From Candidatus Lloydbacteria bacterium RIFCSPLOWO2_01_FULL_50_20 (GTDB taxonomy: Bacteria > Patescibacteriota > Minisyncoccia > Phycocordibacterales > UBA6899): a stretch of 60,102 bases of DNA. The notes under the pieces are model-generated. The model was not told where the DNA came from and made no database searches. It worked only from the letters and a program-made list of their open reading frames with translations. Below, piece by piece: positions 3,285-56,297 of this stretch (its first letter is position 1; every line of letters starts with the position of its first letter). The position numbers and the translations under genes are program-made. Location: positions 1 through 60,102 of the forward strand of contig MHLP01000037.1 of NCBI GenBank assembly GCA_001821435.1, in the 5' to 3' direction.

Positions 3285-6200
3285 CTACCGCACCCACACC
3301 ACCACTGAATAAGTTGCCCCGTCATCCAGCTTCGCGGAAATACGATACCAATACCCCGCAAGCAGTCCCTTTGTGCTCCAATCATAGATATATTGCTGGT
3401 CAGCGGTGTCCCAGCGATATGTGGTACCGTTTGTCGAAGTGTTTATTGAGGCAACTTCGTTTGTGCTGGCGTTCATGGGAGACACTTGTTCGGGTGGCAG
3501 CCAGAGTGGCACCGCAGAGGCCTGTACTAAATTTCCACCCGCATCCTTGAGTTGAAACCTTACTGGTATTGTACTTCCGCCCTTGAAAACTGAAGATGTC
3601 AGCCCCGGCCACACGCTCGTATCATTGATTGGCTGAAGGAAGCCAGAGAAGAGGTAGCTGGGAGGTCGAGGAATAGTGACGGTGTCATTGAGTTTTGGTG
3701 CAAGGGTGATATCTGTTGTGCCATCACCGTCTTCGTCAATGAACATTGAGGAAATAGTGGCAATGTCGGATGTGATATTAAGTACCACGCTTGTTGTCGG
3801 CATTGTTGGTACGTCTTTCCATGTTGTACTTGCAATGAGCGTGTCTCCCGCGAGCTCTTGGGCACTAAAGGTGAATGTTCCAGTCGCGTAACCGTTCATA
3901 ATAATTTTGCCAACGAGATTGGTGTCAGTGAAGAGATATTTTGCATCACCGACTTCAGTATAGTATGTGCCGGGAATCTGCTCCTCGACTTGCCCTGTCG
4001 TTGTCGAGACGCCCGTGTGGCGACCTTTCTCGTCATAGAGATCGAGGGTGAGCGGAGAGTGGAGTGAATATACCAAGCGCATGTCTGTGCTGGTCGGCGT
4101 TTCGACGGAGAGGTATGAATATTCGGAAAGCGGTTTTTTGATGTTTGTAAGGAGATCGGAAATAAAGTTATTTAGTCCGTCGACCTCGAGAATCCTTGAA
4201 TGATCAAAAGAAAAAAATCCTCCGAGAGTATTCACAAAATGATCTCGATTATAAGCTCTCAAGTTCACCCAATAATTTATCGCCCCAGTGGACGTACTCG
4301 TCCAGAGCGCACTGGGGATGAGTACTGTCCCATCGCCATCAATTGTGAAATTCATCCCCGTTTCAAATGAGGTGCTCGGGGGTAGGCATCCGGCACCAGG
4401 GAGACAGAATTGGCTGGTTTTTTGCGTGTAATTAATTCCACTAACTGTCTTAGGCACCCCCCAGCCGGCAATTTGGATCAGCTTGACACCCGGAGGAGGT
4501 GCCCAGCTATCAAGGTTGGTGTGAAGCACTTCGGCATCGGAAAACAGCCCATCGTTTAATTGGATCGGCCTTGCGATATCTGTGCTTTGTGAATCTGCGC
4601 GCCCATAGCTATCAGTGAGAAAGGCGCGAAGCGTGATTTCCGAATTAATGTTCTCACCATAGCGTGTCGCCCAGTCAGAAAGAGTCGCTGGATCAAACGT
4701 GACAACTGGAGTGCGTACATCATTAAAATATCCCGCAGACGGCAGAAGGTGATAGAGCATGGGCGACGTACTCGCAAAAGTACGTGCAACTGAATTTAAG
4801 GTGATAAGTCCAAAGAGGTGATCTTGATCGTAGCCATGGAGTGAAGCTGCAATTGCTGCAGGTGTTCCTACTTGTGGTACTGCAACAAAGATCATTTTGT
4901 CGATTAATTTCGGTGCATCGGCCCCGAGAAGCTGAGTGAGTTTCTTTGCTACTAATCCGCCGTTCGAATGCGCGACGATTGTCACCCTCCCTGTTTTTGA
5001 TGTTGCTGCAAGGCGGCGAAGTTCCTGAATAATATATGGCGACGATGTTGCCTTATTATATGAAATATTGCCATTTTCTTTTTTTCCGCTCGAAAGAATA
5101 TCAGACAATGAGAGCCGCCAGTCATACGGCACAGCTTCCCAGTCATTAATGATATGCTCTGATTTCAGGTTATCCATTCTCGTACTAAAGGACTTATAGA
5201 TATTTGATCCCGTCACGTTTATCTCACCGATCACATCACGGGTGTAAATATCGAACGCCGCCGTACTTTTTCCGTTTGCATCGAGATATAACTTGCGCAC
5301 GTCGTCGTTTCGGTTGGGTTCCCAGAGTTGGTTCTCGCAGTTAATGAACCAACAGTTGGGATCGTCATATGCATACAACCTCGATGCTTCGATGCCCGGC
5401 AAAAACAGTACATTGGAGACGCAGAGGTCGGGGCCTTCCGTTGCGAGGGGGTTACAGCTGGTAAAGTTGCCGAAGTCCACATTATCCGAAACGCGGTCAC
5501 CGGTGCCTCCCGGGTTCGAGGGATGTGTCGGGCCGGATGGATCGCCCCAATAATTGTCCGTTGCGTCGATAGAAATTGCTGAACCATTGTAGAGGCCGTA
5601 TGAGGGATTATCGTGAATGCCCGAGCGATGAATAGCGAATGTTCCATTGCTGATCCATATGCCGTAGAGAGTGCTTGACGCGATCTCGGAATCAACGACC
5701 GTTGCTCTACCTCCGAGCTGGAGCAGGCCAAAGTTGCCGCTGCGCGCGAGCTCTACACGATCGAGTGTGAGCGTGCCGCCGTTATTCTTGATCGCTGAGA
5801 GCCAGTCATATCCGCCGTAGAGGATACGCGCATTCTCGATGCGACCGGTCGAGCCTGGATTGAAGACGATGCTCCTCCATTCGCCGGCATGGGGAAGAGT
5901 TGCATCACCGTCGCCGTTGGTATCTCCGCCTAACGAATCATCGGTGATAGAAGTTATGACGACCTCGTCGGTGGAAGTACTTGAGCCGACATTTAATATT
6001 CCATCAACGGGAATGATCACGTCCGGACGCATCTTTATGATCGCACCGGGAAGTATATTCAATGTAAAACCGTAAGGCACGGTGAGGTATCGGGGAACAT
6101 AGGGAAGGCCATCACCGGGAAGAACGAGATCCTCTTCAAGTGAGAGTCCGAGGGAGATCGCTCCTTCTCCGGTATTTCCGCCATGACTCATAAAGTGTAT

Positions 6201-6965
6201 TGAGGAACCGTCGACGGCAATAGCCTTGCGAGAAGAGATATGCGCGAACGTATTATTGCCAACTACAAATGTTGCCCCAGTAGAAACCGAGATTCCTTCC
6301 GTGAGCGTGTTGAAGTTCGAATCCATAACGGTAAGCGTACTATGATGAGCGGTAACGCCATTTCTTCCAAAGTTTGCAAAAGTGGAGTTGGTGATCGCGG
6401 CAGAGCCGGCAACTTGAGTAAGCCCATCATTTCCGCCCCATGATAATGTCACATGATCAAGCGTGAGCGTGCCGCCGTTATTGGTTATAAGCGGGTTCAT
6501 ATAGGATCCTCCAGACCACGGGTTGTATGGCGACGCGCCGCCATACCGAATAACCGTATTCGTGACGGTGCCCATTGACCACGAGTTAAAGACCATCGTG
6601 TTCCAGTCACCAGTCTGTGGTGCGCTGGTGGAACCATCACCATTCGTATCACCACCGGCAGAGTCATCTTTTAGAGAAGTAATGATCACCGGTTCATTGT
6701 CCGCTCGTCCGATGATGAGCGTGCCGTCAACGGTGAACGGGTTACTCATTTCCGCCGCCTTCACGATAGCGCCCGGTTCTATGGTAAGTGAGGAGCCTAA
6801 TGGAATAGAAACACCGCTGGTCACGTACGGCCCGTTTGCTTTCGTCCACGTTATATCGCCCGCGATCGTACCGGAGAATGAGGTATCCGCTTGGGCGATG
6901 TTCCACGCAAAAAAAGCTAAAAAGACGGCTATAATAAACGATAATCTTGTTCTGTGGATATTCAT
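3285..6965 (-). CDS. Large secreted protein: duplicated right-handed beta-helix modules, central alpha/beta-hydrolase (lipase-like), C-terminal Ig-like domain
   Basis: Start trimmed to MNIHRTRLSFIIAVFLAFFAWNIAQA (signal peptide). Two paralogous blocks: ITSLKDDSAGGDTNGDGS...NNGGTLTLDHV and ITSITDDSLGGDTNGDGD...NNGGTLTLDRV. GXSXG nucleophile motif in VTIVAHSNGGLVAKK. Confidence 0.8.
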   Translation of the reverse strand: MNIHRTRLSFIIAVFLAFFAWNIAQADTSFSGTIAGDITWTKANGPYVTSGVSIPLGSSLTIEPGAIVKAAEMSNPFTVDGTLIIGRADNEPVIITSLKDDSAGGDTNGDGSTSAPQTGDWNTMVFNSWSMGTVTNTVIRYGGASPYNPWSGGSYMNPLITNNGGTLTLDHVTLSWGGNDGLTQVAGSAAITNSTFANFGRNGVTAHHSTLTVMDSNFNTLTEGISVSTGATFVVGNNTFAHISSRKAIAVDGSSIHFMSHGGNTGEGAISLGLSLEEDLVLPGDGLPYVPRYLTVPYGFTLNILPGAIIKMRPDVIIPVDGILNVGSSTSTDEVVITSITDDSLGGDTNGDGDATLPHAGEWRSIVFNPGSTGRIENARILYGGYDWLSAIKNNGGTLTLDRVELARSGNFGLLQLGGRATVVDSEIASSTLYGIWISNGTFAIHRSGIHDNPSYGLYNGSAISIDATDNYWGDPSGPTHPSNPGGTGDRVSDNVDFGNFTSCNPLATEGPDLCVSNVLFLPGIEASRLYAYDDPNCWFINCENQLWEPNRNDDVRKLYLDANGKSTAAFDIYTRDVIGEINVTGSNIYKSFSTRMDNLKSEHIINDWEAVPYDWRLSLSDILSSGKKENGNISYNKATSSPYIIQELRRLAATSKTGRVTIVAHSNGGLVAKKLTQLLGADAPKLIDKMIFVAVPQVGTPAAIAASLHGYDQDHLFGLITLNSVARTFASTSPMLYHLLPSAGYFNDVRTPVVTFDPATLSDWATRYGENINSEITLRAFLTDSYGRADSQSTDIARPIQLNDGLFSDAEVLHTNLDSWAPPPGVKLIQIAGWGVPKTVSGINYTQKTSQFCLPGAGCLPPSTSFETGMNFTIDGDGTVLIPSALWTSTSTGAINYWVNLRAYNRDHFVNTLGGFFSFDHSRILEVDGLNNFISDLLTNIKKPLSEYSYLSVETPTSTDMRLVYSLHSPLTLDLYDEKGRHTGVSTTTGQVEEQIPGTYYTEVGDAKYLFTDTNLVGKIIMNGYATGTFTFSAQELAGDTLIASTTWKDVPTMPTTSVVLNITSDIATISSMFIDEDGDGTTDITLAPKLNDTVTIPRPPSYLFSGFLQPINDTSVWPGLTSSVFKGGSTIPVRFQLKDAGGNLVQASAVPLWLPPEQVSPMNASTNEVASINTSTNGTTYRWDTADQQYIYDWSTKGLLAGYWYRISAKLDDGATYSVVVWVR

Positions 6966-7188
6966 CTGGAATTCATGAAAAAAGTGATATAATAGACGCT
7001 TGGTAGTGTATGGGTATAGGGAAGTAAGACCGAAAATCGTTATTTTTCCTAAAACTACGCAGAATAGCGGGAAACGCAAGGAACTTGCGCTTTTTGTTAA
7101 AGCATGGTAACATGTTAACCATATTGTAGGTTGTAGGCGTGTTTTGGTTTTATCACTCCATTCGTTAATTTATAAATAAATTTATTTT

Positions 7189-9945: not shown

Positions 9946-11052
9946 ATGAATATCACCAAGTTAGTGCTTACCGGCGGGCCATGTGCGGGGAAAACAACCG
10001 CACTAGAGTTCCTCGCCGACCGATTGCGGGCGAGCGGATATTATCCGCTTATTGTTCACGAGGCTGCGACGGCGGTCCTTTCGACGGGACTGACTTACCT
10101 GGATGCGAACGGTGACTGGTTTCCGTTCCAGCGCGCTGTGATTCAGCAGATCATTTCCAGCGAGGACATACTCGAGCAAACGCTTCGGCGCCTGTCTTAT
10201 GCACGGCCGATACTCATCTGCGATCGCGGGATTATGGACTCGAAAGCGTATATGACCGCTTCACAGTTCCAGAGAGTTATCGAGGCGTGCGGATTGAGGC
10301 ATCCTGCGAAGATCCGCAACGGGCGTTATGATGCGGTGATCCATATGCGGAGCACTGCCATTGGTGCCGAGGAATTCTATTCTTCAAAAACCAATGTGCA
10401 CCGTCGGGAAACTATCGCGGAAGCGACTGTGGCTGACGAACGGACGCTTGCGGTGTGGCTCGGCCATCAACACCTCGCGGTCGTCGGGAATACGTACGGC
10501 GATTTTGCGGGAAAGCTCGAGGCGGTGTGGAAAAGCGCCTGCCGTTTGCTCGGCATACCGAAACCGCGCGAGATCGAGAAGAAGTTTCTCGTCGAGCCGG
10601 TCGATTTCACAGCTCTCGGCATCCCTCATGAAACGGTGGATATCGAACAATATTATCTGGAACTGCCGGATCAAGAGAAGGAGGTGATCGCCCGTATCCG
10701 CTCATGGGGGAAAAATGGTGCGGAAACGCATACCTTCACGCAAAAGCGGACGATCGTACCTGGCGAGGTCGAAGAGATCGAAGAACATATTTCCGAAATG
10801 GTGTTCGCGCAGTATACGAAATATCAGAAGCGGGGAACGATACCTCTTTGTAAGCGCCGTACGTGTTTCGTCTATAATGACCAGTATTTCATGTACGACG
10901 AATTCCTTACCGGCCGGCCGGGGCTCATGCTTCTCGAAATAGAATTGGAAAGTCAGGAGAGCAATGTCACCCTTCCGCCGTTTGTTCGTGTTCGCAAAGA
11001 TGTTACCCTGAAAAGAGAATACTCAAACAGCATGATCGCCGTCTCGGCATGA
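9946..11052 (+). CDS. P-loop ATPase (NadR/AAA_28-like) fused to a CYTH (triphosphate tunnel) domain
   Basis: Walker A LTGGPCAGKTT at the N-terminus. C-terminal half starts with the EIEKKFLV (ExExK) CYTH signature and later has LLEIELES. Confidence 0.75.
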   Translation: MNITKLVLTGGPCAGKTTALEFLADRLRASGYYPLIVHEAATAVLSTGLTYLDANGDWFPFQRAVIQQIISSEDILEQTLRRLSYARPILICDRGIMDSKAYMTASQFQRVIEACGLRHPAKIRNGRYDAVIHMRSTAIGAEEFYSSKTNVHRRETIAEATVADERTLAVWLGHQHLAVVGNTYGDFAGKLEAVWKSACRLLGIPKPREIEKKFLVEPVDFTALGIPHETVDIEQYYLELPDQEKEVIARIRSWGKNGAETHTFTQKRTIVPGEVEEIEEHISEMVFAQYTKYQKRGTIPLCKRRTCFVYNDQYFMYDEFLTGRPGLMLLEIELESQESNVTLPPFVRVRKDVTLKREYSNSMIAVSA

Positions 11053-25080: not shown

Positions 25081-25587
25081 ATGGACCGAAAAAGCACCTT
25101 CATGATCGTCGGACTTCTCTTGCTCGGGATCGTATTTTTTCTTGTTATTTTGTTTACCCGAAACGTGATCAATACGAATGGCGATACGCCGTACACTGCG
25201 TCGACAACGGACTGGACAAATACACCCGCAGAGCCCCGGGACGTGCTTGTTACTCCAAAAACTACGGTAACCGCAAAGCACGCATATCAAAATGGCACAC
25301 ATATTATCGCGGGTGAAATACCGCTTCCCACACCATGCCATATTCTCGAGACAAAAGGTTCTGCTTCGGCGGACAAAAAGCAAGTGTTCATCGAGCTTAC
25401 TTCAAGTATAAAAACCGATGAAATGTGCGCGCAAGTGATCACCCCCGCGCGTTTTAAGGTGAGCGTTAAGGCTTTGTCGGGTGCAAAAATGAGCGCGACC
25501 TTGAACGGTCAGGAGGTCATTCTCAATCTGATCGAAGCGGGTCCCGAGGAGAACCTGGATAATTTCGAGTTGTATATCAAAGGATAA
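25081..25587 (+). CDS. Hypothetical membrane-anchored protein
   Basis: N-terminal TM FMIVGLLLLGIVFFLVILF. No recognised motif. Confidence 0.55.
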   Translation: MDRKSTFMIVGLLLLGIVFFLVILFTRNVINTNGDTPYTASTTDWTNTPAEPRDVLVTPKTTVTAKHAYQNGTHIIAGEIPLPTPCHILETKGSASADKKQVFIELTSSIKTDEMCAQVITPARFKVSVKALSGAKMSATLNGQEVILNLIEAGPEENLDNFELYIKG

Positions 25588-25668
25588 GGCCGTTCGGCTC
25601 GCGCTCGCCCCGTAGCGAGCTTAGCACTATTACTGGGGTAATTTTTTTTAGTTTGTTATACTCACCTG

Positions 25669-25965: not shown

Positions 25966-26148
25966 GAAGAGTCACCTAACGCGCCTGTTCTTGCCCGAAG
26001 AGCTTTCATTTGCTAGGCTTTGAAATACTTGTCCCGTTAGAGTCCGTGATGGTACGGGGCAGGCAATAGACTTCATGTCGCCTTAATTTTTTATAAGATT
26101 TTTAACCAAACGGGTGGTGAGAGCTATCGCGACCCGCCTTTAACTAGG

Positions 26149-33879: not shown

Positions 33880-34380
33880 TCACTGCCGATCGAGAACAAG
33901 GAATTGATAAGGATAAGCGTTTTTTGCGTCGGACTTATAACGGCGTTCAAAAATCAATCCCCAGTCGTTTTTGTCATATGCGGGAAAATAGGCATCACCG
34001 GAAAATGTGTCTTCAATGATGGTGAGACAGAGCGTCTGTGCATCATCCATGAATTGCGCATAGACTCCCGCACCTCCGGAGATAAATACCATCTGACCAC
34101 CCGGCGCTTTCTCCGCGAGCAAAAGGGCTTCCGCCTTTGCTCTCGCGAGAAGCGTTCCTTGGGGCGCATGCTTCAGGCTTCTCGAGAGCACTATGGTCGT
34201 TCTTCCCGGGAGCGCCCGACCGATGCTCTCGTAGGTTTTGCGTCCCATGATGATGGGGCGGCCCAGTGTAGTGTTATAAAAACGATGCATGTCGGAATGC
34301 ATTTTTCCTTTCCAGGGAATTGACCCCGCTTTTCCGATGACCCGATTTTTGTCCATGGTGGCGATAATGGAAATGTACAT
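33880..34380 (-). CDS. folA: Dihydrofolate reductase
   Basis: MYISIIATMDKNRVIGKAGSIPW...GRPIIMGRKTYESIG. Start trimmed to ATG 34380. Confidence 0.9.
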   Translation of the reverse strand: MYISIIATMDKNRVIGKAGSIPWKGKMHSDMHRFYNTTLGRPIIMGRKTYESIGRALPGRTTIVLSRSLKHAPQGTLLARAKAEALLLAEKAPGGQMVFISGGAGVYAQFMDDAQTLCLTIIEDTFSGDAYFPAYDKNDWGLIFERRYKSDAKNAYPYQFLVLDRQ

Positions 34381-34597
34381 GTTCCTCTCCGGTGACTCTC
34401 TAAAAATAGTAGAGCAAAAGACCTTTGACCGCAAAGATGTTTCGGTGTGTGGAGTTATCCCCAGGATCCTCCTGTTTTTTGCTGTGCTACACTGTTCGCA
34501 GATTGTACGGAGGAAAAATTACGTGAAAAATTTTTTCAGCGTCATTGGGGGGAATATCGGCGAGTTTTGCCGGATAGCTCTTAATATAAAACGTTCT

Positions 34598-35977
34598 ATG
34601 GATAATCCACTTGGACATCTTCGCCATCATGTAAGCCGGCTTAAGAACGGGGGACTCGTTCTCCTGCTTGATACGGGCGCACGGATCACCCCCGAAGCTG
34701 AAGCGATGCTGCAGGCGCTTTATTCTCGCGACCCGCAGAGCGTTTACGAACACCTGAAGGCGATCGCGGAAAAAGGCCCCGGAAAATTCATGGCCAGTTA
34801 CTATGTCGGTTATGGCCACAAGTCTATCGGCGATTGCGGAACGGTGACGCTCTTTATCGAGGGGATCTCAATGCTTGCCGCCAAGGCGATCCAAGACTGG
34901 ATGCTTTATTCCGGACAGGAGGTTTCGACCCGCTATGTCGATTTCTCGATCCAGCCTTTCGAGGATCCCGTCGGAACCGTTACCACCAAGGAAATGCTGG
35001 AAGCGCTCCGGACGTATTATCTCCATGCGTTACCCCTTCTCGAGATCGATCTTAAGCGGCGATTTCCGATCGCGGAAGGTGAAAAGGAAGCGATGTATGT
35101 GAAAGCGATCAAGGCGCGCGCCTTCGATACGTTGCGCGGCTTCCTTCCTGCCGGAGCGCGGACGAGTATTGCGTGGCATACGAACCTCAGACAGGCTGCC
35201 GACAAGATCGCATTGCTTCGCCATCATCCGCTTCGCGAAGTGCGCCAGTCGGCGGATGCGATCGAGAGCGTGCTCATTGAAGCCTATCCGAGTTCATTCA
35301 GCCACGAAAGGTTCGAGGCGACGGAGAAATACAATGAGCAGTGGATGTCCGGGCAATATTATCTCGAAGACACCGCTTGCCCGGAATTTCTGCTTGCTCG
35401 TGACGATATTGCTTACGGCGAATTTGCCAGAAGGCCCGAGCTCCAAAAGATCTTTGCCGATCGTCCGCCAAAGACCGAACTTCCGAAAATGCTTGCCGAA
35501 TTCGGTACAATGCAGTTTCGTTTTCTGCTTGACTTCGGTTCGTTCCGCGACATACAGCGTCAGCGCGCGGTTGCGCAGCGCATGCCTCTCCTTACCGCCT
35601 TCCACGGATTCGAGGAATGGTATCTTGACGAGCTGACGCCGGAATTGCGCGAGGAAGCAAAGAATGTTCTCTCCAAGAATAGCGAAGCGATAGCGGTTTT
35701 GGAAAAAGCGGATACGCCGAAGGAGGTCATCCAATATTTTCTTCCGATGGGTTACCGCACGGCGAACCGTTTGACCGGCGATCTTCCGGCCATCGTCTAT
35801 CTTGTGGAACTTCGTGCGACGCGTTTCGTTCACCCGACGCTTCAAGTGCGCGCGCATCAGATGGCCAATGTGTTAAAAGAACGGCTGGGAAAATACGGAC
35901 TCAACCTCCATATCGACAGCGAAGTGGGTCGCTTCGACATAAGGCGCGGCGCTCAAGATATCATCAAAAAAAATTGA
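34598..35977 (+). CDS. thyX: Thy1/ThyX-family protein, tandem two-domain form
   Basis: Half 1: GHKSIGDCGTVTLFIEGISMLAAKAIQ...SGQEVSTRYV. Half 2: FLLDFGSFRDIQRQRAV (RHR motif reads RQR). Start trimmed to MDNPLGH to avoid overlap with folA. Confidence 0.65.
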   Translation: MDNPLGHLRHHVSRLKNGGLVLLLDTGARITPEAEAMLQALYSRDPQSVYEHLKAIAEKGPGKFMASYYVGYGHKSIGDCGTVTLFIEGISMLAAKAIQDWMLYSGQEVSTRYVDFSIQPFEDPVGTVTTKEMLEALRTYYLHALPLLEIDLKRRFPIAEGEKEAMYVKAIKARAFDTLRGFLPAGARTSIAWHTNLRQAADKIALLRHHPLREVRQSADAIESVLIEAYPSSFSHERFEATEKYNEQWMSGQYYLEDTACPEFLLARDDIAYGEFARRPELQKIFADRPPKTELPKMLAEFGTMQFRFLLDFGSFRDIQRQRAVAQRMPLLTAFHGFEEWYLDELTPELREEAKNVLSKNSEAIAVLEKADTPKEVIQYFLPMGYRTANRLTGDLPAIVYLVELRATRFVHPTLQVRAHQMANVLKERLGKYGLNLHIDSEVGRFDIRRGAQDIIKKN

Positions 35978-35984
35978 ACTCATG

Positions 35985-37264
<1,280 letters not shown>

Positions 37265-37547: not shown

Positions 37548-37576
37548 TTTACAAACGTTAGCATATAGTTTATACT
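37548..37576 (+). promoter_or_regulatory. Promoter TTTACA-N17-TATACT of the uvrB leader
   Basis: -35 at 37548-37553 and -10 at 37571-37576. ATG 37585 lies 8 nt after the -10, so the transcript is leaderless or nearly so. Confidence 0.5.
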
Positions 37577-37584
37577 CTGTCAAC

Positions 37585-37698
37585 ATGTCTGGATTTAAAT
37601 TGAGGTCAGATTGGGCGCCTGCGGGAGACCCCATAGCAAAGCAAGGCTTGCTATGGGGCGAGAAGTGCCTTTTTAATATATTCCTGCATCATGGATAA
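37585..37698 (+). other. 37-codon uORF: diverged copy of UvrB residues 1-15, then the conserved hairpin; stop overlaps the uvrB ATG
   Basis: MSGFKLRSDWAPAGD against UvrB MDKFKLKSDWLPAGD. The uORF TAA at 37696-37698 overlaps ATG 37691 (ATGGATAA). Confidence 0.7.
37629..37658 (+). repeat. Hairpin motif shared with the uvrA leader
   Basis: CCCCATAGCAA-agcaaggc-TTGCTATGGGG (11-bp stem). 26/33 nt identical to 44294-44326. Confidence 0.75.
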
Positions 37699-39739
37699 AT
37701 TTAAATTAAAAAGCGACTGGCTTCCTGCTGGAGATCAACCGAAGGCGATAAAGCAACTCACCGATGGATTGGCAAAAAATATGCGTTACCAGACGCTACT
37801 TGGTGTTACCGGCTCAGGAAAAACCTTCACCGTCGCGAACGTGATACAAGCGGTTCAAAAACCGACGCTGGTCATCGCGCACAATAAAACACTTGCCGCT
37901 CAGCTTGCGCAAGAGTATCGCTCGTTCTTCCCAGACAACGCGGTGCACTATTTTGTTTCATACTACGACTACTATCAGCCAGAAGCGTATCTCCCAACCA
38001 CCGACACCTATATTGAGAAAGATGCACAGATCAACGAAGAGATCGACCGTTTGCGCCATGCGTCGACGCAGGCGCTGCTCTCTCGCCCCGATGTCATCAT
38101 TGTCGCTTCGGTCTCGTGCATTTATGGCCTCGGATCTCCGGACGAATATCTCAAGGTGAATCTGAAACTTTCCGTCGGCGACAGGCTTTCCCGAAATGAC
38201 CTCATCCGTAAGCTCGTGAATGTTTATTTTGACCGCACCAATGCGGATCTGCAGCCAGGAACTTTTCGCGGCATAGGGAATACGCTTGAAGTCATGCCGA
38301 CAGGAGAGGTGATGATCTATCAGATCACCTTCTCGGGAAGCGCGGTCGAGTCGATCCTGAAGATCAATCCGATCACTCGAGCGGTCGTCGGGAATGAAGA
38401 GACCTGTTTTTTCTTTCCGGCGAAGCACTTTATTACACCGGAAACCGAACGCAAACGCGCGGTCGAGGATATCAAAATGGAACTTGCCGAGCGCTTGAAA
38501 GTGCTCGATGGAGAAAAAAAGCTTCTTGAAGTCGAACGCCTCAAGCGCCGCACAAAATATGATATCGCAATGATTGAGGAGGTGGGTTACTGTAGCGGTA
38601 TCGAGAACTATTCACGCCATTTTTCTGGAAAAACGCCTGGTGAGCCGCCGGAGACCCTGCTTTCTTATTTTCCCCACAATGCGAACGGAACACCTGATTT
38701 TCTCACTATTATCGACGAATCGCACGTTACCGTTCCGCAATTGCGCGGGATGTATGCGGGCGATCAGTCGCGCAAAAAAACCCTCGTCGAGCATGGTTTT
38801 CGTCTCCCTTCCGCATGTGACAACCGCCCGCTCACATTTACTGAATGGGAAAAACGCATCGGGGCGGTGATCTTCACTTCGGCGACACCGGCGGATTTCG
38901 AAAGAGCAGTGAGCGAGCAGGTGGTCGAGCAGGTCATTCGCCCGACCGGACTTGTCGACCCTGAGATCGTCGTGCGGCCGGTCGTGCAAAAAGGCGATTA
39001 TTCGGGACAAATCACTGACTTCATTGCTGAGGCGGCGGCAGTTGTCAAAAAAGGAGAACGTATCCTCGTGACGACACTGACTAAAAAAATGGCCGAAGAT
39101 CTTTCCGTATACCTCAAAGAGAAAGGCGTGAAGGCGGAATACCTCCATAGCGATGTGAAGACGATGGATCGCATTCGCATACTTACCGAGTTCCGCAAGG
39201 GCACATTTGACTGTCTTGTGGGCGTCAACCTGCTCCGCGAAGGACTCGATCTCCCCGAAGTTTCTTTAGTCGCAATCCTTGATGCGGACAAAGAAGGATT
39301 TCTCCGCTCCGAAACATCGCTTATTCAGACGATTGGCCGCGCCGCACGCAATGTCGCCGGCCGCGTGCTTCTCTATGCGGACGTGATGACCGGCTCGCTC
39401 TCGGCTGCCATAGGGGAGACCGATCGCCGAAGGAACGTACAGATCGCGTACAATAAAGCCCACGGCATCACTCCGCAGAGTATCCATAAGAAGATTAGGG
39501 ATATTACCGAAGAGCTGGTGTCGACGCATGACAGGGCGCTCAAAGAGCTCTTTTTGCTCGATAAAATGAACTTCATCAAGGATCCGGAAAAGCTTATGAA
39601 GCAAAAAGAAAAAGAAATGCTCGTCGCGGTCAAAGAGCTCGACTTTGAATCCGCGGCGCTCCTCCGTGACGAGATCAAGATGCTCCGGGGTGAGCCTGTA
39701 CATGAGCACAGCAACTCGAAACCGCGAAAAAGACGTTAG
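37691..39739 (+). CDS. uvrB: Excinuclease ABC subunit B
   Basis: GDQPKAIKQL, GVTGSGKTF, FVSYYDYYQPEAY, helicase motifs and the C-terminal UVR domain FESAALLRDEI. Confidence 0.95.
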   Translation: MDKFKLKSDWLPAGDQPKAIKQLTDGLAKNMRYQTLLGVTGSGKTFTVANVIQAVQKPTLVIAHNKTLAAQLAQEYRSFFPDNAVHYFVSYYDYYQPEAYLPTTDTYIEKDAQINEEIDRLRHASTQALLSRPDVIIVASVSCIYGLGSPDEYLKVNLKLSVGDRLSRNDLIRKLVNVYFDRTNADLQPGTFRGIGNTLEVMPTGEVMIYQITFSGSAVESILKINPITRAVVGNEETCFFFPAKHFITPETERKRAVEDIKMELAERLKVLDGEKKLLEVERLKRRTKYDIAMIEEVGYCSGIENYSRHFSGKTPGEPPETLLSYFPHNANGTPDFLTIIDESHVTVPQLRGMYAGDQSRKKTLVEHGFRLPSACDNRPLTFTEWEKRIGAVIFTSATPADFERAVSEQVVEQVIRPTGLVDPEIVVRPVVQKGDYSGQITDFIAEAAAVVKKGERILVTTLTKKMAEDLSVYLKEKGVKAEYLHSDVKTMDRIRILTEFRKGTFDCLVGVNLLREGLDLPEVSLVAILDADKEGFLRSETSLIQTIGRAARNVAGRVLLYADVMTGSLSAAIGETDRRRNVQIAYNKAHGITPQSIHKKIRDITEELVSTHDRALKELFLLDKMNFIKDPEKLMKQKEKEMLVAVKELDFESAALLRDEIKMLRGEPVHEHSNSKPRKRR

Positions 39740-44147: not shown

Positions 44148-44188
44148 GTGTAATTAGACTACGTAGTAGAGAATGATAAGAGTAAGAT

Positions 44189-44217
44189 TTGTTATTTTTA
44201 TAAAATTGTGTTACAAT
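44189..44217 (+). promoter_or_regulatory. Promoter TTGTTA-N17-TACAAT of the uvrA leader
   Basis: -35 at 44189-44194 and -10 at 44212-44217 with an upstream TG. uORF ATG at 44232. Confidence 0.5.
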
Positions 44218-44231
44218 CGACCGCTTGCCAT

Positions 44232-44342
44232 ATGATTGAGAAACCACACAAAAGTGAGGAACAGGAGACCATCATCGTCAAAGGCGCTCGCCCCCCGAAG
44301 CAAAGCAGGGCTTGCTACGTGGCAGGCCCACAATCTTTATGA
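44232..44342 (+). other. 36-codon uORF: contains a diverged copy of the UvrA N-terminal IIVKGAR block, then the conserved hairpin; stop overlaps the uvrA ATG
   Basis: [20 protein letters not shown] against Uvr[20 protein letters not shown]. atcatcgtcaaaggcgctcgc against ataattgttaaaggcgctcgt (17/21). ATGA overlap at 44339-44342. Confidence 0.7.
44293..44322 (+). repeat. Hairpin motif shared with the uvrB leader
   Basis: CCCCGAAGCAA-agcagggc-TTGCTACGTGG. One base pair changed compensatorily relative to the uvrB copy (A-U to G-C). Confidence 0.7.
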
Positions 44343-46963
44343 AAGAGCAAAGTAAAATAATTGTTAAAGGCGCTCGTACGCACAATTTGAAGAACATCAC
44401 CGTCACGATGCCACGGAACAAGATGATCGTATTCACCGGACTTTCGGGGTCAGGGAAGTCGTCGCTAGCTTTCGACACGATCTTTGCCGAAGGTCAGCGG
44501 CGTTATGTCGAGTCACTCTCCGCGTACGCGCGGCAGTTCCTCCACCAAATGCAGAAGCCCGACGTCGACGAGATCGTCGGCCTTTCGCCCGCTATTTCCA
44601 TCGATCAGAAATCGCATTCCTCCAACCCGCGTTCGACGGTTGCCACGATCACGGAGATCTACGACTATCTGCGCGTGCTTTTTGCGCGCGTCGGCATCCC
44701 GCACTGCTTGCTCTGCGGAAAGCCGATCAAACGCCTGACCAACGAGGAGATCATGGGGATCGTATTCGATCGCGTCGAAGAGATAGGGAAGCATTCACCA
44801 AAAGATGAGGTCATGGGTGTTCCGTATTCGACGCTCAAGGTGGGGATCTATGCCCCGCTCGTCCGAGGGAGAAAAGGAGAGTATTACCAATTGCTTTATG
44901 ATTATTTGAGCAAGGGCTACAGCAAGGCGCGTATTGACGGAAAGCAAAAAAATCTTCGAGAACAGATCATCCTGGCGAAACAGAAAAAGCACGATGTCGA
45001 TATCTTGGTGGATGAATTTTTTGTTTCCGAATTTCGCGATAACACCAAAGGAGTTCGGGAACGTTTGTCCGAGGCCGTGGAGCGCGCTCTCGGCGAAGCG
45101 GAAGGGCTTGTGCGTCTCGTGATCGGCGATGAAGAAACATTAATGTCCGCAAAGTTCGCGTGTCCCGACGACGGTTTTTCTTATCCTGAGGTAGAGCCGA
45201 GACTTTTTTCATTCAATTCTCCTTACGGTGCCTGTCAAACATGCAACGGGCTCGGAACGAAGCATTTTTTCGGTGATGAGCCGTGCGAGGTCTGCGGCGG
45301 GAAGCGCCTTCGTGAAGAAGCACTCCATGTAACGATTGGCGACCCCGTAGTAGAAGCCAAAAGGGCTTCACTACAGGGCAAGCATAAGAAAACTCAAGAA
45401 TCGCGCGGAAAAAGTATCGTCGAGGTGACCGATATGTCGATCGAGGAAGCAAGCAGATTTTTCGGGGGGTTGACGCTCACTCCTATGGAGCGGCAGATCT
45501 CATCGGTCGTGATCAAGGAGATCGAAAGCCGCCTCAGTTTTATGCTCGACGTCGGGATCGGTTATCTCACGCTCGGACGCCGTGCAAATACGCTTTCTGG
45601 CGGCGAGGCGCAGCGCATACGACTCGCTTCACAGCTTGGCTCACGCCTTGTCGGGGCGCTCTATGTGCTCGATGAGCCGACGATCGGTCTTCATCAGAAA
45701 GATAATGACCGCCTCATCAAAACGCTCCGTAATCTGTGCGACATCGGAAACACGATCATTGTCGTTGAGCATGATGAAGATACGATCTTCGCTTCGGATT
45801 ATCTCGTTGATATCGGTCCAGGCGCCGGCGTGCACGGCGGGCACATTGTTGCCTCCGGCTATCTTGAAGACCTGCTTCTGGATAAAAAAGCAAAATCACT
45901 CACACTTGATTATCTCCGCAAGGATAAGCAAATTCCGCTCCCTGAAAAACGCAGAGTGAAAGACAAGGGGGCGCTGGGGCTGCGCGGCGGAAAGGCATTT
46001 AACATCACGAACATGAACGTGGATATTCCGCTCGGCCGCCTCGTCACGGTTACCGGAGTTTCCGGGTCGGGAAAATCGACCTTTCTTTATGAACTCATAT
46101 ACAAAAATCTGCAGGCGCGTTTCGACCGGCGTTATCGTTCCCCGAAAACCTATAATTGTGCAGAGTTCACCGGAACGGAATATCTGCATCGCGCGATCTT
46201 GATCGACCAGTCGCCGATCGGGCGCACTCCGCGCTCAAATCCCGCGACCTATACCGGAGCATGGACGTTCGTACGTGACCTCTTTGCGGAAACGGAAGAA
46301 GCCCGCGTACGCGGCTGGAGAGCATCGCGATTTTCTTTCAATGTGAAAGGCGGGCGCTGCGAAGCCTGTGAAGGGAACGGCATGGTCGCCGTGGAAATGC
46401 ACTTCCTTCCGACCGTGTATGTCCTTTGCGATGTGTGTCAGGGCAAACGTTTTCAAAAAGAAACACTGGAGGTGAAATTCAAAAAGAAAAATATTTATGA
46501 AGTCCTGAAGATGACCGTCGAGGAGGCCTGCGAGTTCTTTCGCGACATTCCCGCCATCGAAGATCGGCTGAAGACGTTGAACGATGTGGGACTGGGTTAT
46601 TTGGAGCTTGGGCAATCAGCAACAACGCTTTCGGGCGGTGAGGCGCAGCGCGTAAAAATTGCTTCAGAACTCTATCGTCCGTTCCAGCAGCGCACGATCT
46701 ATCTCTTGGATGAGCCGACCATCGGTCTCCACTACGAGGATGTGAAGAAGCTTATTGAGATCCTTCAGGCGCTCGTGGAGAAAGGGAACAGCGTACTCAT
46801 GATCGAGCACAATCTCGATGTGATCAAATCCTCAGACTATGTCATTGACATTGGTCCGGACGGCGGCTCTGGCGGAGGGCAGCTTGTCGCCAGGGGAACA
46901 CCTGAGGAGATCGCGAATAATCCAAAGTCATATACGGGGAAATATTTGAAACGTTCGTTATGA
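44339..46963 (+). CDS. uvrA: Excinuclease ABC subunit A
   Basis: [23 protein letters not shown], zinc-finger Cys pairs, LSGGEAQR twice and two ABC modules. Confidence 0.95.
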
Positions 46964-46982: not shown

Positions 46983-48335
46983 ATGTTGGTTCAGGAACTC
47001 AAAAAACTCAAATTGCCTGATGAGCCGGGGGTATATGAATTCATCGACGCGCGCCGAAAGATACTCTATATCGGCAAAGCGGCGTCGCTTCGTGAGCGCG
47101 TGCGCAGTTATTTTGCGAATGATCTTTTGCATACGCGGGGAAAACATCTCGTTGATATGGTCACGCTTGCCCATGCGGTGCGATTCATTCGCGTCGATTC
47201 CGTGCTTGATGCGATCATCCTTGAGGCGAGTCTGATAAAAAAGCATCAGCCACTTTACAATACAAAAGAAAAAGACGACAAAAGCTGGAATTACGTCGTC
47301 ATTACCAAGGAGGCATATCCCGCGGTACTCACTATCCGCGAGCGCACGATGTTTCTCGGAGAACATGAACGAAAAAAGTACCGCTACACGTTCGGGCCGT
47401 TTCCGCAGGGAACAAACCTGAAGGAGGCACTCAAGATCGTGAGGAAGATCTTTCCTTTTCGCGATACATGCTCGCCTGCAAAGGCTGAAGGAGTTTCGAC
47501 AGGCAAACCTCTCGCGGGAAAGCCCTGCTTCAATCGTCAGATCGGATTATGTCCCGGCGTGTGTACGGGGGAAATAAGCAAGGAAGAGTACGCCGAGCGG
47601 ATACGGCAGATCGCACTTTTTTTTGCAGGCAGAAAAAGCGTGTTACTCAAACAGCTCGAACGATCAATGCGTACGCATGCGAAAGCGCTCGAATTTGAGG
47701 CGGCAGGAGAGTATAAACGAATGATCTTTGCGCTAAAGCACATCAAAGATGTCGCACTCATTAACAGTGAAGTGCGCGCACATTCGCAAAAAACCTCAAG
47801 AAAGCGCACCAGACCGTTTCGCATTGAGGCATATGATGTCGCGCACATTTCCGGCAGGTACACCGTCGGAGTGATGACTGTTGTCGAAGATGGACGCCCG
47901 AAGCCGTCAAATTATCGTAAATTCAAGATCCGCCCCGAAGTGATCCGCAAGGTCAGGGATACCGCTCCAGTAGCAGAACAGGGTTCAGTACAGGACGCTA
48001 CGGGGCAAACATCGGAAGTGAAAGTCAATGACGTGCTTCATCTCGAACAAGTGCTGTTGCGCCGTTTGAGACACAAGGAGTGGCCCAGACCGGACATCAT
48101 CGTGGTCGACGGCGGAGTTGCGCAGAAACGGAGAGCGGAAAAGGCGGTCAAAGAGGCTGGTCTTTCCCTTACGGTTCTCTCAGTCGTCAAAGACGAGCGA
48201 CATAAACCGCGCATGATCCTTGGCAATAAAGAGCTCGCATTGTCTTATGAGCGCGGTATCCTTATTGCAAACGGGGAAGCACACCGTTTTGCCGTCGCCT
48301 ATCATAGAAAATTGAGAGGGAGACTGCCTCTTTAG
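46983..48335 (+). CDS. uvrC: Excinuclease ABC subunit C, short form (no C-terminal (HhH)2)
   Basis: GIY-YIG (PGVYEF...ILYIGKA...YN), UVR domain (ALEFEAAGEYKRMI) and the RNase-H-like endonuclease region (IEAYDVAHISG...VVDGG). Ends at 450 aa. Confidence 0.85.
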   Translation: MLVQELKKLKLPDEPGVYEFIDARRKILYIGKAASLRERVRSYFANDLLHTRGKHLVDMVTLAHAVRFIRVDSVLDAIILEASLIKKHQPLYNTKEKDDKSWNYVVITKEAYPAVLTIRERTMFLGEHERKKYRYTFGPFPQGTNLKEALKIVRKIFPFRDTCSPAKAEGVSTGKPLAGKPCFNRQIGLCPGVCTGEISKEEYAERIRQIALFFAGRKSVLLKQLERSMRTHAKALEFEAAGEYKRMIFALKHIKDVALINSEVRAHSQKTSRKRTRPFRIEAYDVAHISGRYTVGVMTVVEDGRPKPSNYRKFKIRPEVIRKVRDTAPVAEQGSVQDATGQTSEVKVNDVLHLEQVLLRRLRHKEWPRPDIIVVDGGVAQKRRAEKAVKEAGLSLTVLSVVKDERHKPRMILGNKELALSYERGILIANGEAHRFAVAYHRKLRGRLPL

Positions 48336-56156: not shown

Positions 56157-56199
56157 CGCTACTCGCTGTACTGAACCCAAGCTTTCAATACGGGGCCTG

Positions 56200-56238
56200 C
56201 CCTGTAGTAGACCGCTTCTCTCTAGGCTTACTACAGGG
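56200..56238 (+). terminator. 10-bp hairpin after the nuclease gene
   Basis: ccctgtagta-N19-tactacaggg. No clear T-run. Confidence 0.35.
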
Positions 56239-56297
56239 TTGACAGCTTTGCGGAAAAGGCAAAAGATGAATGCGGAGGCTGAATCAGGGGAATAGCA

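Follow-up and report, generated by a model that had tools for sequence, protein, structure and literature searches.

The excision-repair genes uvrB and uvrA of Candidatus Lloydbacteria bacterium RIFCSPLOWO2_01_FULL_50_20 are each preceded by a short open reading frame (ORF) that contains a common hairpin motif, and the question raised by this arrangement is what one motif is doing in front of two separate repair genes. The DNA analysed, referred to below as the window, is the forward strand of contig MHLP01000037.1 (assembly GCA_001821435.1) over 60,102 nt; its UvrB is 100% identical to the protein of RIFCSPHIGHO2_02_FULL_50_11. An earlier note, made from the window alone, had suggested that the motif could be a repressor operator, an RNA structure controlling re-initiation, or the terminal hairpin of a small mobile element. 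We find that the motif represents one of the sequence types in a family of small palindromic elements of Patescibacteria, similar to repetitive extragenic palindromes (REPs) and miniature inverted-repeat transposable elements (MITEs), and that it is not specific to uvr genes. The explanation that we favour, with moderate confidence, is that at uvrA and uvrB this palindrome is the joint at which the resident gene end was replaced by an imported one.

The key feature goes beyond what the earlier note described: each upstream ORF starts with a diverged copy of the N-terminal codons of the gene downstream of it and, in the case of uvrB, the copied segment also takes in the −10 box and leader. The displaced copy of the uvrB start, MSGFKLRSDWAPAGD (ATG at 37585), and the working copy, MDKFKLKSDWLPAGD (ATG at 37691), are identical at 29 of 45 nt. 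The duplication is ungapped from the −10 box through codon 15 (37571-37626 against 37677-37732), and reads TATACTCTGTCAAC-ATG in the upstream copy and TATATTCCTGCATC-ATG in the downstream one. At uvrA, the displaced …IIVKGAR segment is identical to the gene's own start at 17 of 21 nt, with the displaced and working copies differing in length by 7 codons (20 against 13). The hairpin starts no more than one base from where the upstream copy ends, which leaves little besides the hairpin itself as the insert proper. The coordinates of these features are collected in Table 1.

Which of the two copies is native can be seen from related DNA, taken from public genome, metagenome and viral collections and numbered here by compared locus (L001 and so on). 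Uninterrupted uvrB genes with the same native promoter and leader are found in L019/L020, L016/L017, L013-L015 and L024 (UvrB 83-88% identical), and the N-termini of these proteins are of the MSGF, MSAF or MSVF type. The uvrA gene is uninterrupted in L016/L017, L023, L024, L026, L027 and L029, with a long native N-terminus (MTERKKGTGPQESIIVKGAR followed directly by THN), and its promoter is homologous to the one that stands before the upstream copy in the window. Since the uninterrupted genes of the relatives share these promoters and N-termini with the upstream copies, we conclude that the upstream copies are displaced native 5′ ends. The same comparison shows the hairpin, spacer and second N-terminus together to be an insertion, polymorphic among relatives.

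Table 1. Positions in the window of the uvrB and uvrA features and of the members of the palindromic family.
Feature	Position	Strand	Remarks
Native uvrB promoter, TTTACA-17-TATACT	37548-37576	+	Same −10 box and leader (TATACTCTGTCAAC-ATG) directly 5′ of uninterrupted uvrB in L019/L020
Displaced native uvrB 5′ end (relic), 15 codons, MSGFKLRSDWAPAGD	37585-37629	+	Matches N-termini of uninterrupted relatives (MSGFKLKSDW…)
uvrB upstream ORF, 37 codons and stop	37585-37698	+	Relic, hairpin and spacer; stop overlaps uvrB start (ATGGATAA)
Palindromic element, copy 1	37629-37662	+	CCCCATAGCAA-AGCAAGGC-TTGCTATGGGG-CGAG; covariance model 54.9 bits
Spacer homologous to native −10 box and leader	37663-37690	+	TATATT-N8-ATG at 37677-37693; no Shine-Dalgarno sequence
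uvrB	37691-39739	+	Replacement copy supplies the first 15 codons (MDKFKLKSDWLPAGD)
Native uvrA promoter, TTGTTA-17-TACAAT, with TG	44189-44217	+	Homologous to promoter of uninterrupted uvrA in L016/L017 and L029
Displaced native uvrA 5′ end, 20 codons	44232-44291	+	Native form in relatives is MTERKKGTGPQESIIVKGAR followed by THN
uvrA upstream ORF	44232-44342	+	Stop overlaps real start (ATGA)
Palindromic element, copy 2, degenerate stem	44291-44326	+	CCCCCCGAAGCAA-AGCAGGGC-TTGCTACGTGG-CAGG; covariance model 55.8 bits
uvrA	44339-46963	+	First 13 codons are the replacement copy; first 26 nt identical to L028 replacement copy
Family member inside uvrA, in frame	45339-45385	+	z −6.0; protein continues GKSIVEV; this loop holds different inserts in relatives
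Family member inside uvrC, in frame	47962-48012	+	Covariance model; translated …APVAEQGSVQDATGQT…
Family member between PD-(D/E)XK nuclease gene and UvrD/AddA-like helicase-nuclease operon	56193-56242	−	Covariance model
Family member 13 nt after stop of ORF 25081-25587	25601-25641	−	T8 run follows on that gene's strand
Weak family member	26029-26066		Covariance model

The order of displaced end, hairpin, spacer and working end recurs at five genes in at least ten assemblies, and as these are independent assemblies from different studies, an assembly artefact is very unlikely. At uvrB it is present in the window, L018, L021/L022 and L023, four lineages that are 70-100% identical, and the junction is the same in all of them, lying after the GAC codon that ends …GD and before QP…, even in L023, whose UvrB is only 70% identical. 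Hairpin tips at this site are of three types, the window having "AGCAAAGCAAGGCTTGCT", L018/L021 "GTAAGCCCACTAAGAAGTGGTC" and L023 a third; the flanks do not differ, and all of the hairpins fold. At uvrA the layout is found in the window and in L028. Two of the five genes carry it at their 3′ ends. In L002 and L006 the working end of ychF (VVEFKI-stop or VIEFKI-stop) is followed by 7 nt, the hairpin and a second VIEFKI-stop, and in L018 the displaced end of the TGT gene matches the uninterrupted TGT end of the window, the orientation of the hairpin relative to the gene differing between TGT and ychF. At the 5′ end of msrA in L010 (700-1110), a unit of hairpin, spacer and new N-terminus is present as three nearly identical tandem copies (129-nt period) behind one native relic. 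In the literature we found no description of a displaced gene end paired with a replacement end at this scale, or tied to a palindromic repeat.

The msrA spacer of L010 holds a reverse complement (CCAGAAACAGCCC) of the target sequence spanning the junction (GGGCTGTTTCTGG). An antisense guide was considered and dropped, as no equivalent of this reverse complement was found at uvrA or uvrB.

If the upstream copies are native, where did the downstream copies come from? Differences between displaced and working copies number 4, 6 and 24 at codon positions 1, 2 and 3 respectively, and amino-acid identity between them is kept beyond that expected of random substitution (P ≤ 0.002 per locus). This pattern shows that the two copies diverged under protein-level selection, each as part of a working gene, and because of it we exclude a target duplication that has decayed in place. 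The new gene starts also resemble the native starts of other lineages. The new uvrB start, MDKFKL, is the native type of a clade ∼70% identical to the window (L025-L027, with MGKFKL, MSKFKL and MQKFEL, each directly behind its own promoter), and the new uvrA start, MKEQSK, resembles the native MEKHKEQDK of L023. The new uvrB copies of the window and L023 do not differ over their first 18 nt, nor do the new uvrA copies of the window and L028 over their first 26 nt; the spacers are alike as well. These identities are seen despite host third positions that differ by about 0.47, and the new uvrB copy is host-like after about 6 codons. We read identical starts that give way to host-like sequence as imported DNA followed by homologous exchange. 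No foreign tract could be resolved inside uvrB, where third positions are near saturation (0.46-0.53).

Further alleles among the relatives bear on what becomes of the arrangement once formed. The uninterrupted uvrB of L019 is a chimera of codons 1-7 as in the L018 relic (21 of 21 nt) and codons 8-15 as in the new copy of the window (23 of 24 nt), and would be the expected product of recombination between the two repeats, with an uninterrupted gene restored. In L025 only a spacer-like TAATATATTTCT is left, between a normal promoter and the ATG. At uvrA, proteins with a cassette-type start (P0124/P0127) and with a native start (P0125/P0128) are 99-99.8% identical beyond residue 25. The DNA of L028 and L029 is identical from promoter to ATG, and again from GGTGCGCGGACGCAT onward; between these identical flanks L029 has the native 20 codons, while L028 has ATGGCAGAC (3 relic codons), the hairpin, the spacer and 13 new codons. 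Given that L028 and L029 are near-identical and that L028 keeps only 3 relic codons, we conclude that the cassette segregates within a population and that the displaced copy is dispensable. Together these alleles show that a replaced gene start can be exchanged or lost as an allele, and that the displaced copy can be deleted.

The motif itself is as the earlier note reported it in several respects. The uvrB copy (37630-37662) and the uvrA copy (44294-44326) are identical at 26 of 33 positions, and the codon phase in which the motif is read differs between the two upstream ORFs. Exactly two sites in the window (37635-37653 and 44299-44317) match the 19-nt core AGCAAAGCARGGCTTGCTA, even with three mismatches allowed, and 100 shuffles of the window gave no match. 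The claim of an 11-position stem in both copies holds for uvrB, which forms a perfect 11-bp stem with two inner pairs within the "loop" (RNA −20.3 kcal/mol, z −4.0; DNA z −5.2), but is overstated for uvrA, in which 9 of the 11 stem positions pair (two mismatches), the minimum-energy fold is another helix, and stability as DNA is no greater than that of shuffles (z 0.08). The compensatory A-U/G-C pair is likewise real, being the only double change across the 8 copies of this sequence type, but it is not distinctive, given that 121 of 500 shuffles do equally well. Covariation as a sign of a selected RNA was rejected, as it is not significant in these 8 copies. A scan of the window with Rfam 15 returned three tRNAs only and no match to the hairpin at gathering scores, and Rfam at E ≤ 1 gave nothing meaningful on the uvrA and uvrB leaders. 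No U-tract directly follows the uvrA hairpin, and at uvrB a T5 run comes only after 11 nt.

In the wider family the consensus is (A)CCCC-R-GTAG … CTAC-R-GGGGC-RRG(-C), of which the stem base and 3′ flank are kept and the tips are exchangeable. Stems are 11-13 bp long, with 91% of cells paired over 8 copies, and most copies have fold z-scores of −2.6 to −6.0. The hairpin structure is kept while the sequence changes: where L018 has a C-G pair at one stem position and L021 an A-T pair, or the reverse, both bases have changed together. Other Patescibacteria have extended matches directly after the ychF stop, on the opposite strand (L002/L008 and L006), in the msrA tandem units of L010, and between genes in L007 and L012. 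A covariance model built from these matches, and then run on the window and related loci, found about five further members in the window that have the same stem base and 3′ flank but other tips (Table 1). That the window holds no further copy, as had been stated, is correct for the exact core, including the regions upstream of lexA and dinB, but does not extend to these other-tip members. The member at 25601-25641 looks like a terminator because of the T8 run that follows it on the strand of the neighbouring gene. Other-tip members were also found by the model in L018, L021 and L023, and a terminator-like U-tract is present on the opposite strand at L018 5232-5267 and 8247-8284. One copy in L018 supplies the TAG stop of a DHFR gene. 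CTAC is present in 8 of the first 10 copies, and top-strand GTAG in about half, within the stem and not as an unpaired tag; the window uvrB copy has ATAG/CTAT instead of GTAG/CTAC. The density of members is ∼7 in the 60 kb of the window and 3 in 20.7 kb of L018, and the exact core occurs once only in one species-representative genome. Tips are alike within a genome and different between genomes, the window having two of one type and L018 two of another.

A number of matches were discarded as they are without the CCCC…GGGG base: L001 and L003-L005 (4 of 5 genome-collection matches), L009 and L011 from metagenomes, and all of the viral matches (L030-L032). No true copy was found in viral contigs, and a second viral scan with the other tip type returned nothing. 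In two of the discarded loci, both from cyanobacterial metagenome-assembled genomes, the exact 19-mer core lies 10 nt after the stop of a tyrosine recombinase gene and before radA (L003 2877-2895 and L004 6721-6739). With the CCCC…GGGG base absent, we treat this as a chance, terminator-like match.

Of the suggestions made in the earlier note, the hairpin of a small mobile element is the one best borne out, being supported by the dispersed family, by the presence/absence polymorphism and by a 5-bp duplication opposite an empty site. The duplication belongs to one of the longer members, of 72-135 nt and with the same termini, that are found in L002. The 72-nt member at 3959-4030 has TTGAC as a 5-bp repeat on both sides, and the corresponding site in L006 is empty; the members at 6948-7082 and 210-285 are flanked by the 4-bp repeats TCAA and TATG respectively. 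No junction consensus is apparent beyond a frequent "AC" before CCCC, and a search for an autonomous insertion sequence was negative, with no compared locus having a transposase-like ORF between matching termini spaced 0.3-3 kb. The earlier note had added that many copies in random contexts would make this a generic REP-like repeat. REP-like it largely is, but the contexts are not random: members lie at gene ends and in DNA-repair genes. Four of the ∼7 window copies are in uvrABC (post hoc binomial P about 0.003), and five of the 7 are in repair genes (post hoc binomial P about 0.006).

Fragments of palindromic members, like whole ones, cluster in DNA-repair genes. A mini-hairpin, CCGTAGATTACTACGG, lies at 1477-1492 between lexA and dinB; the member at 56193-56242 sits inside an AddAB-like cluster; and a family fragment, CTACGTAGTAG, is found at 44159-44169, upstream of the native uvrA promoter.

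The explanation we favour for uvrA and uvrB would begin with DNA from a diverged relative in which the element lay just outside the end of that relative's own gene. Positions 7-13 nt after a stop are the usual place of family hairpins, as seen at 25601, ychF and TGT. The imported DNA would recombine with the resident gene by one crossover in the conserved gene body, while its other end would be fixed at the hairpin, either with copies of the element serving as portable homology or with the hairpin serving as a defined DNA end. The rearranged gene would be transcribed from the old native promoter; translation of the displaced start, as a leaderless upstream ORF, would run on through the hairpin and be followed by re-initiation at the new ATG. 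The native uvrB −10 box is 8 nt from the displaced ATG, without a Shine-Dalgarno sequence, and because of this distance the native transcript should be leaderless or nearly so. The native uvrA −10 box is 14 nt from its ATG, again with no Shine-Dalgarno sequence. Judging by the promoters of the window, L019, L026 and L027, native uvrB appears leaderless in this group and uvrA nearly so. In 5 of 5 measured 5′ cases (four uvrB alleles and the window uvrA) the stop of the upstream ORF falls in the interval from −15 to +7 nt relative to the new ATG, and none of the five starts has a Shine-Dalgarno sequence. Re-initiation is the likely route for these two reasons, and expression probably depends on translation of the upstream ORF followed by re-initiation. 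An RNA structure controlling re-initiation, as had been proposed, is plausible, but as a consequence only, and cannot explain the copies at 3′ ends. The −10 box retained in the spacer could act as a weak second promoter. The apparent uvrA and uvrB "leader peptides" are displaced native gene starts, and the true starts are without ribosome-binding sites, which matters for start-codon calling and regulon prediction in Patescibacteria.

Several results weigh against replacement by an imported gene end. The short copies in the window have no clear target-site duplication. No recombinase, transposase or RAYT gene was found in the window. In the ∼0.5 Mb of related DNA compared, which includes no complete genome, we saw no donor with the element just outside an otherwise native uvrB. 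The uvrB junction is identical in lineages that are only 70% identical. Finally, the relics are in unexpectedly good condition. The displaced uvrB copies of the window and L018 differ by 7 synonymous and 1 non-synonymous codon changes, and the displaced ychF copies of L002 and L006 by 5 synonymous and 0 non-synonymous; this nearly synonymous-only drift would be surprising for dead DNA if the insertion were old. The hosts, moreover, are as far apart as 0.47 at third positions. The state of the relics needs recent repeated acquisition at one and the same site, or refreshing by recombination with uninterrupted alleles, or selection on the displaced copy. The L028/L029 pair and the L019 chimera favour recent entry or refreshing over selection on the displaced copies.

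The alternative that survives best, possible in our judgement though doubtful, is that hairpin, spacer and surrogate gene end form a homing cassette, cut out and then pasted precisely at a conserved site by an enzyme that acts in trans at the foot of the hairpin (HUH/Y1, integron-like or another recombinase). The unit of ∼90-130 nt would then be, as we tentatively put it, a minimal selfish element of a kind not described before, which mimics a gene end and homes to one fixed, highly conserved position close to where housekeeping and repair genes begin or end. Such a cassette would neutralise its own damage, its insertion being harmless because it supplies a working replacement for the codons cut off, and it would pass from lineage to lineage even where proteins are only 70% identical. 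In a variant of this idea, both copies may be kept by selection, with cycles of excision and re-insertion bringing the displaced copy back into use. Here the identical uvrB junction in four lineages down to 70% identity would follow directly, as would the L028/L029 difference, which ends exactly at the conserved GAR codons with no detectable co-transferred tract, and the three msrA units that stand in tandem after one native relic. Conservation of the spacer and of the initial 18-26 nt of the new copy far exceeds that of host synonymous sites, and the relics look freshly displaced, both of which also fit. However, no enzyme gene was found beside any of the copies, the hairpin is not oriented the same way to the gene at TGT and ychF, the uvrA relic varies from 20 codons in the window to 3 in L028, and many family members, intergenic or in frame, have no gene-end copy at all. 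The new uvrB copy, moreover, is cassette-like for ∼6 codons and then host-like, which points to homologous exchange.

We regard as unlikely that the hairpin is a selected cis-regulatory device of excision-repair genes, whether as an operator for LexA or another protein or as an mRNA hairpin that tunes translation coupled to the upstream ORF. Both window copies of this sequence type are in uvr leaders, and the post hoc excess of members in uvrABC (4 of ∼7) and in repair genes (5 of 7) speaks for a device of this kind. The coupling of upstream stop to downstream start is kept in all measured 5′ cases, and the hairpin structure is maintained by compensatory change. However, in close relatives these promoters are without the element, those of uvrA or uvrB in L016/L017, L019/L020, L013, L024 and L029 keeping their native form, and neither the motif nor any shared palindrome is found upstream of lexA (749), of dinB (1580), or in front of the native uvrA and uvrB promoters of six genomes. 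The interior of the hairpin is not conserved at orthologous sites, being replaced by unrelated sequence in L018, L021, L023 and L028. The same element and layout are found at msrA and also behind two genes, ychF and TGT, at their 3′ ends; the element occurs in intergenic DNA too, and no Rfam family matches it. The repressor operator of the earlier note, in particular a lineage-specific SOS box, is contradicted by these distributions.

Slightly less probable again is duplication in situ, by which insertion of the element, or replication slippage at the hairpin, would have doubled 20-85 bp of target whose two copies then diverged. The doubled segments are indeed direct repeats that abut the element, and at uvrB the −10 box and leader are part of the repeat. 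There are known cases of REP clusters that have been multiplied along with the DNA around them (PMC3733652), and the near-identical msrA units show that local amplification does occur. However, the 4/6/24 distribution of differences with amino acids kept is not that of a dead copy, which would change at all codon positions; the uvrA copies differ in length by 7 codons; and the new copies match the native N-terminus of another clade.

Translational bypassing of the T4 gene 60 type, in which the displaced copy (MSGFKLRSDWAPAGDQPK…) would be the true N-terminus and the ribosome would hop to the matching codon, is very improbable: the last displaced codon is synonymous with its counterpart in the new copy in every 5′ case (GAC/GAT or GAC, CGC/CGT, GGC/GGC), the hairpin starts right after the would-be take-off codon and the displaced copies keep evolving like coding sequence, but the codon match is a trivial consequence of homology, Pro or Ser codons and not a stop follow the take-off codon, the new copies are conserved as coding sequence too, the 3′ cases (ychF, which has no matching landing codon, and TGT) cannot work in this way, and L028 has lost almost all of its displaced copy.

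Other observations were made at neighbouring or related loci. In L018, a second palindromic repeat (GGGGTATACCCCAGCACTTACTTTT…AAAGTAAGTGCTGGGGTATA) at 6843-6878, upstream of TGT, and at 10986-11023, downstream of uvrB, brackets the TGT-uvrB block. In L002, a 44-nt hairpin (CCCCGTTAAATCCGAC…TATTTAACGGGG) at 3429-3472 lies in frame in ychF (…ACPVKSDEVGAELFNGV…) and is maybe another translated palindromic insert. Upstream of uvrA, L028 (267-680) and L029 (about 2890-2910) differ by an indel of ∼400 nt, of which the extra DNA contains a 104-aa ORF; a family terminus (ACCCCGTAGTAGCCCG) lies just upstream, and in L028 a HicA toxin gene lies downstream of uvrA. The TGT gene of the window is split at 36403-36458 into two ORFs (36037-36417 and 36458-37264) by an apparent single extra T (CGACCTTGAG). 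The break falls in a variable surface loop with a 13-bp inverted repeat (AACGTCCGACCTT…AAGGTCGGACGTT), and the L018 TGT is intact, at 446 aa, with a longer loop. The split could be a frameshift, a sequencing error or a pseudogene; a related insertion was rejected, the break being a one-base frameshift in a variable loop. The ThyX (Thy1) ORF at 34289-35977 is 562 aa long with two Pfam stretches, ∼2 times the usual length. ThyX in relatives is 466-529 aa (L023, L025), and the long form seems to be a lineage trait.

Among known systems, the closest likeness is to the GTAG-tagged REPs described by Di Nocera et al. (2013, PMC3733652), stem-loops with GTAG that are thought to be mobilised by RAYT transposases. 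In that work REPs were found inside uvrA, uvrB and other repair genes, at the N-termini of ORFs where translation may start downstream, in positions where they sometimes donate a TAG stop, and in clusters repeated together with flanking DNA (PMC3733652). The family described here shares the 30-45-nt G+C-based stem-loop, in many copies a GTAG/CTAC motif at the stem base, tips that look species-specific, the location just after stops, the donation of TAG, the copies inside uvrA, uvrB and other repair ORFs, those at the N-termini of ORFs with a start further downstream, and the tandem clusters that include flanks. It differs in that GTAG is inside the stem and not an unpaired tag, and is degenerate in the two leader copies of the window; in that copy number looks low (∼7 per 60 kb), with no RAYT among the window genes; and in that the target duplications next to the long members, of 4-5 bp, are not known to arise from RAYT/IS200-type transposition. 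For REPs, no displaced gene end has been described that is paired with its replacement.

Bacterial MITEs such as the Rickettsia palindromic elements and the Correia elements (Delihas 2011, PMC3184786) are similar in their terminal inverted repeats that fold into a hairpin, their short target duplications, their filled and empty sites, and their in-frame copies in genes that are still functional. They differ in that no parent insertion sequence with the same ends was found here in the compared loci and in that our short forms are little more than two inverted ends, and MITE insertion does not explain diverged gene-end duplications of 20-85 bp. Integrative elements, islands and prophages among them, that target gene ends (those of tRNA, tmRNA and protein genes) offer a different likeness, namely that an incoming near-copy restores the gene and leaves the native end as a direct repeat. 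Those elements, however, are kilobases long, encode an integrase, and are bounded by the two repeats, one at either end; in the present case only 40-130 nt separate the repeats, no sequence other than the hairpin is specific to the element, and no integrase is nearby. Hairpin and spacer between the repeats come to only 61-91 nt.

Homology-facilitated illegitimate recombination, reportedly a feature of natural transformation in the 2002 studies of de Vries and Wackernagel and of Prudhomme and colleagues, is alike in that one side is anchored by homology and the other is joined without it, leaving a resident remnant and then seamless import. Its joints are scattered microhomologies, whereas all the joints described here fall at the foot of a hairpin, and always of the same kind. 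The REP2 repeat of Neisseria (PMC3184786) stands at gene starts and brings promoter, ribosome-binding site and ATG, but carries no gene-specific codons and displaces no native start. Set beside these systems, the element is a REP/MITE-type palindrome, now in the Candidate Phyla Radiation, to which it extends such palindromes together with their unexplained liking for nucleotide-excision-repair genes. The combination of displaced end, hairpin and xenolog-like replacement is possibly a readable footprint of recombination between lineages of uncultivated bacteria, or else the signature of a tiny mobile cassette that protects its host gene, and either way it provides a sequence-defined marker for testing gene flow and element mobility in metagenomic population data.

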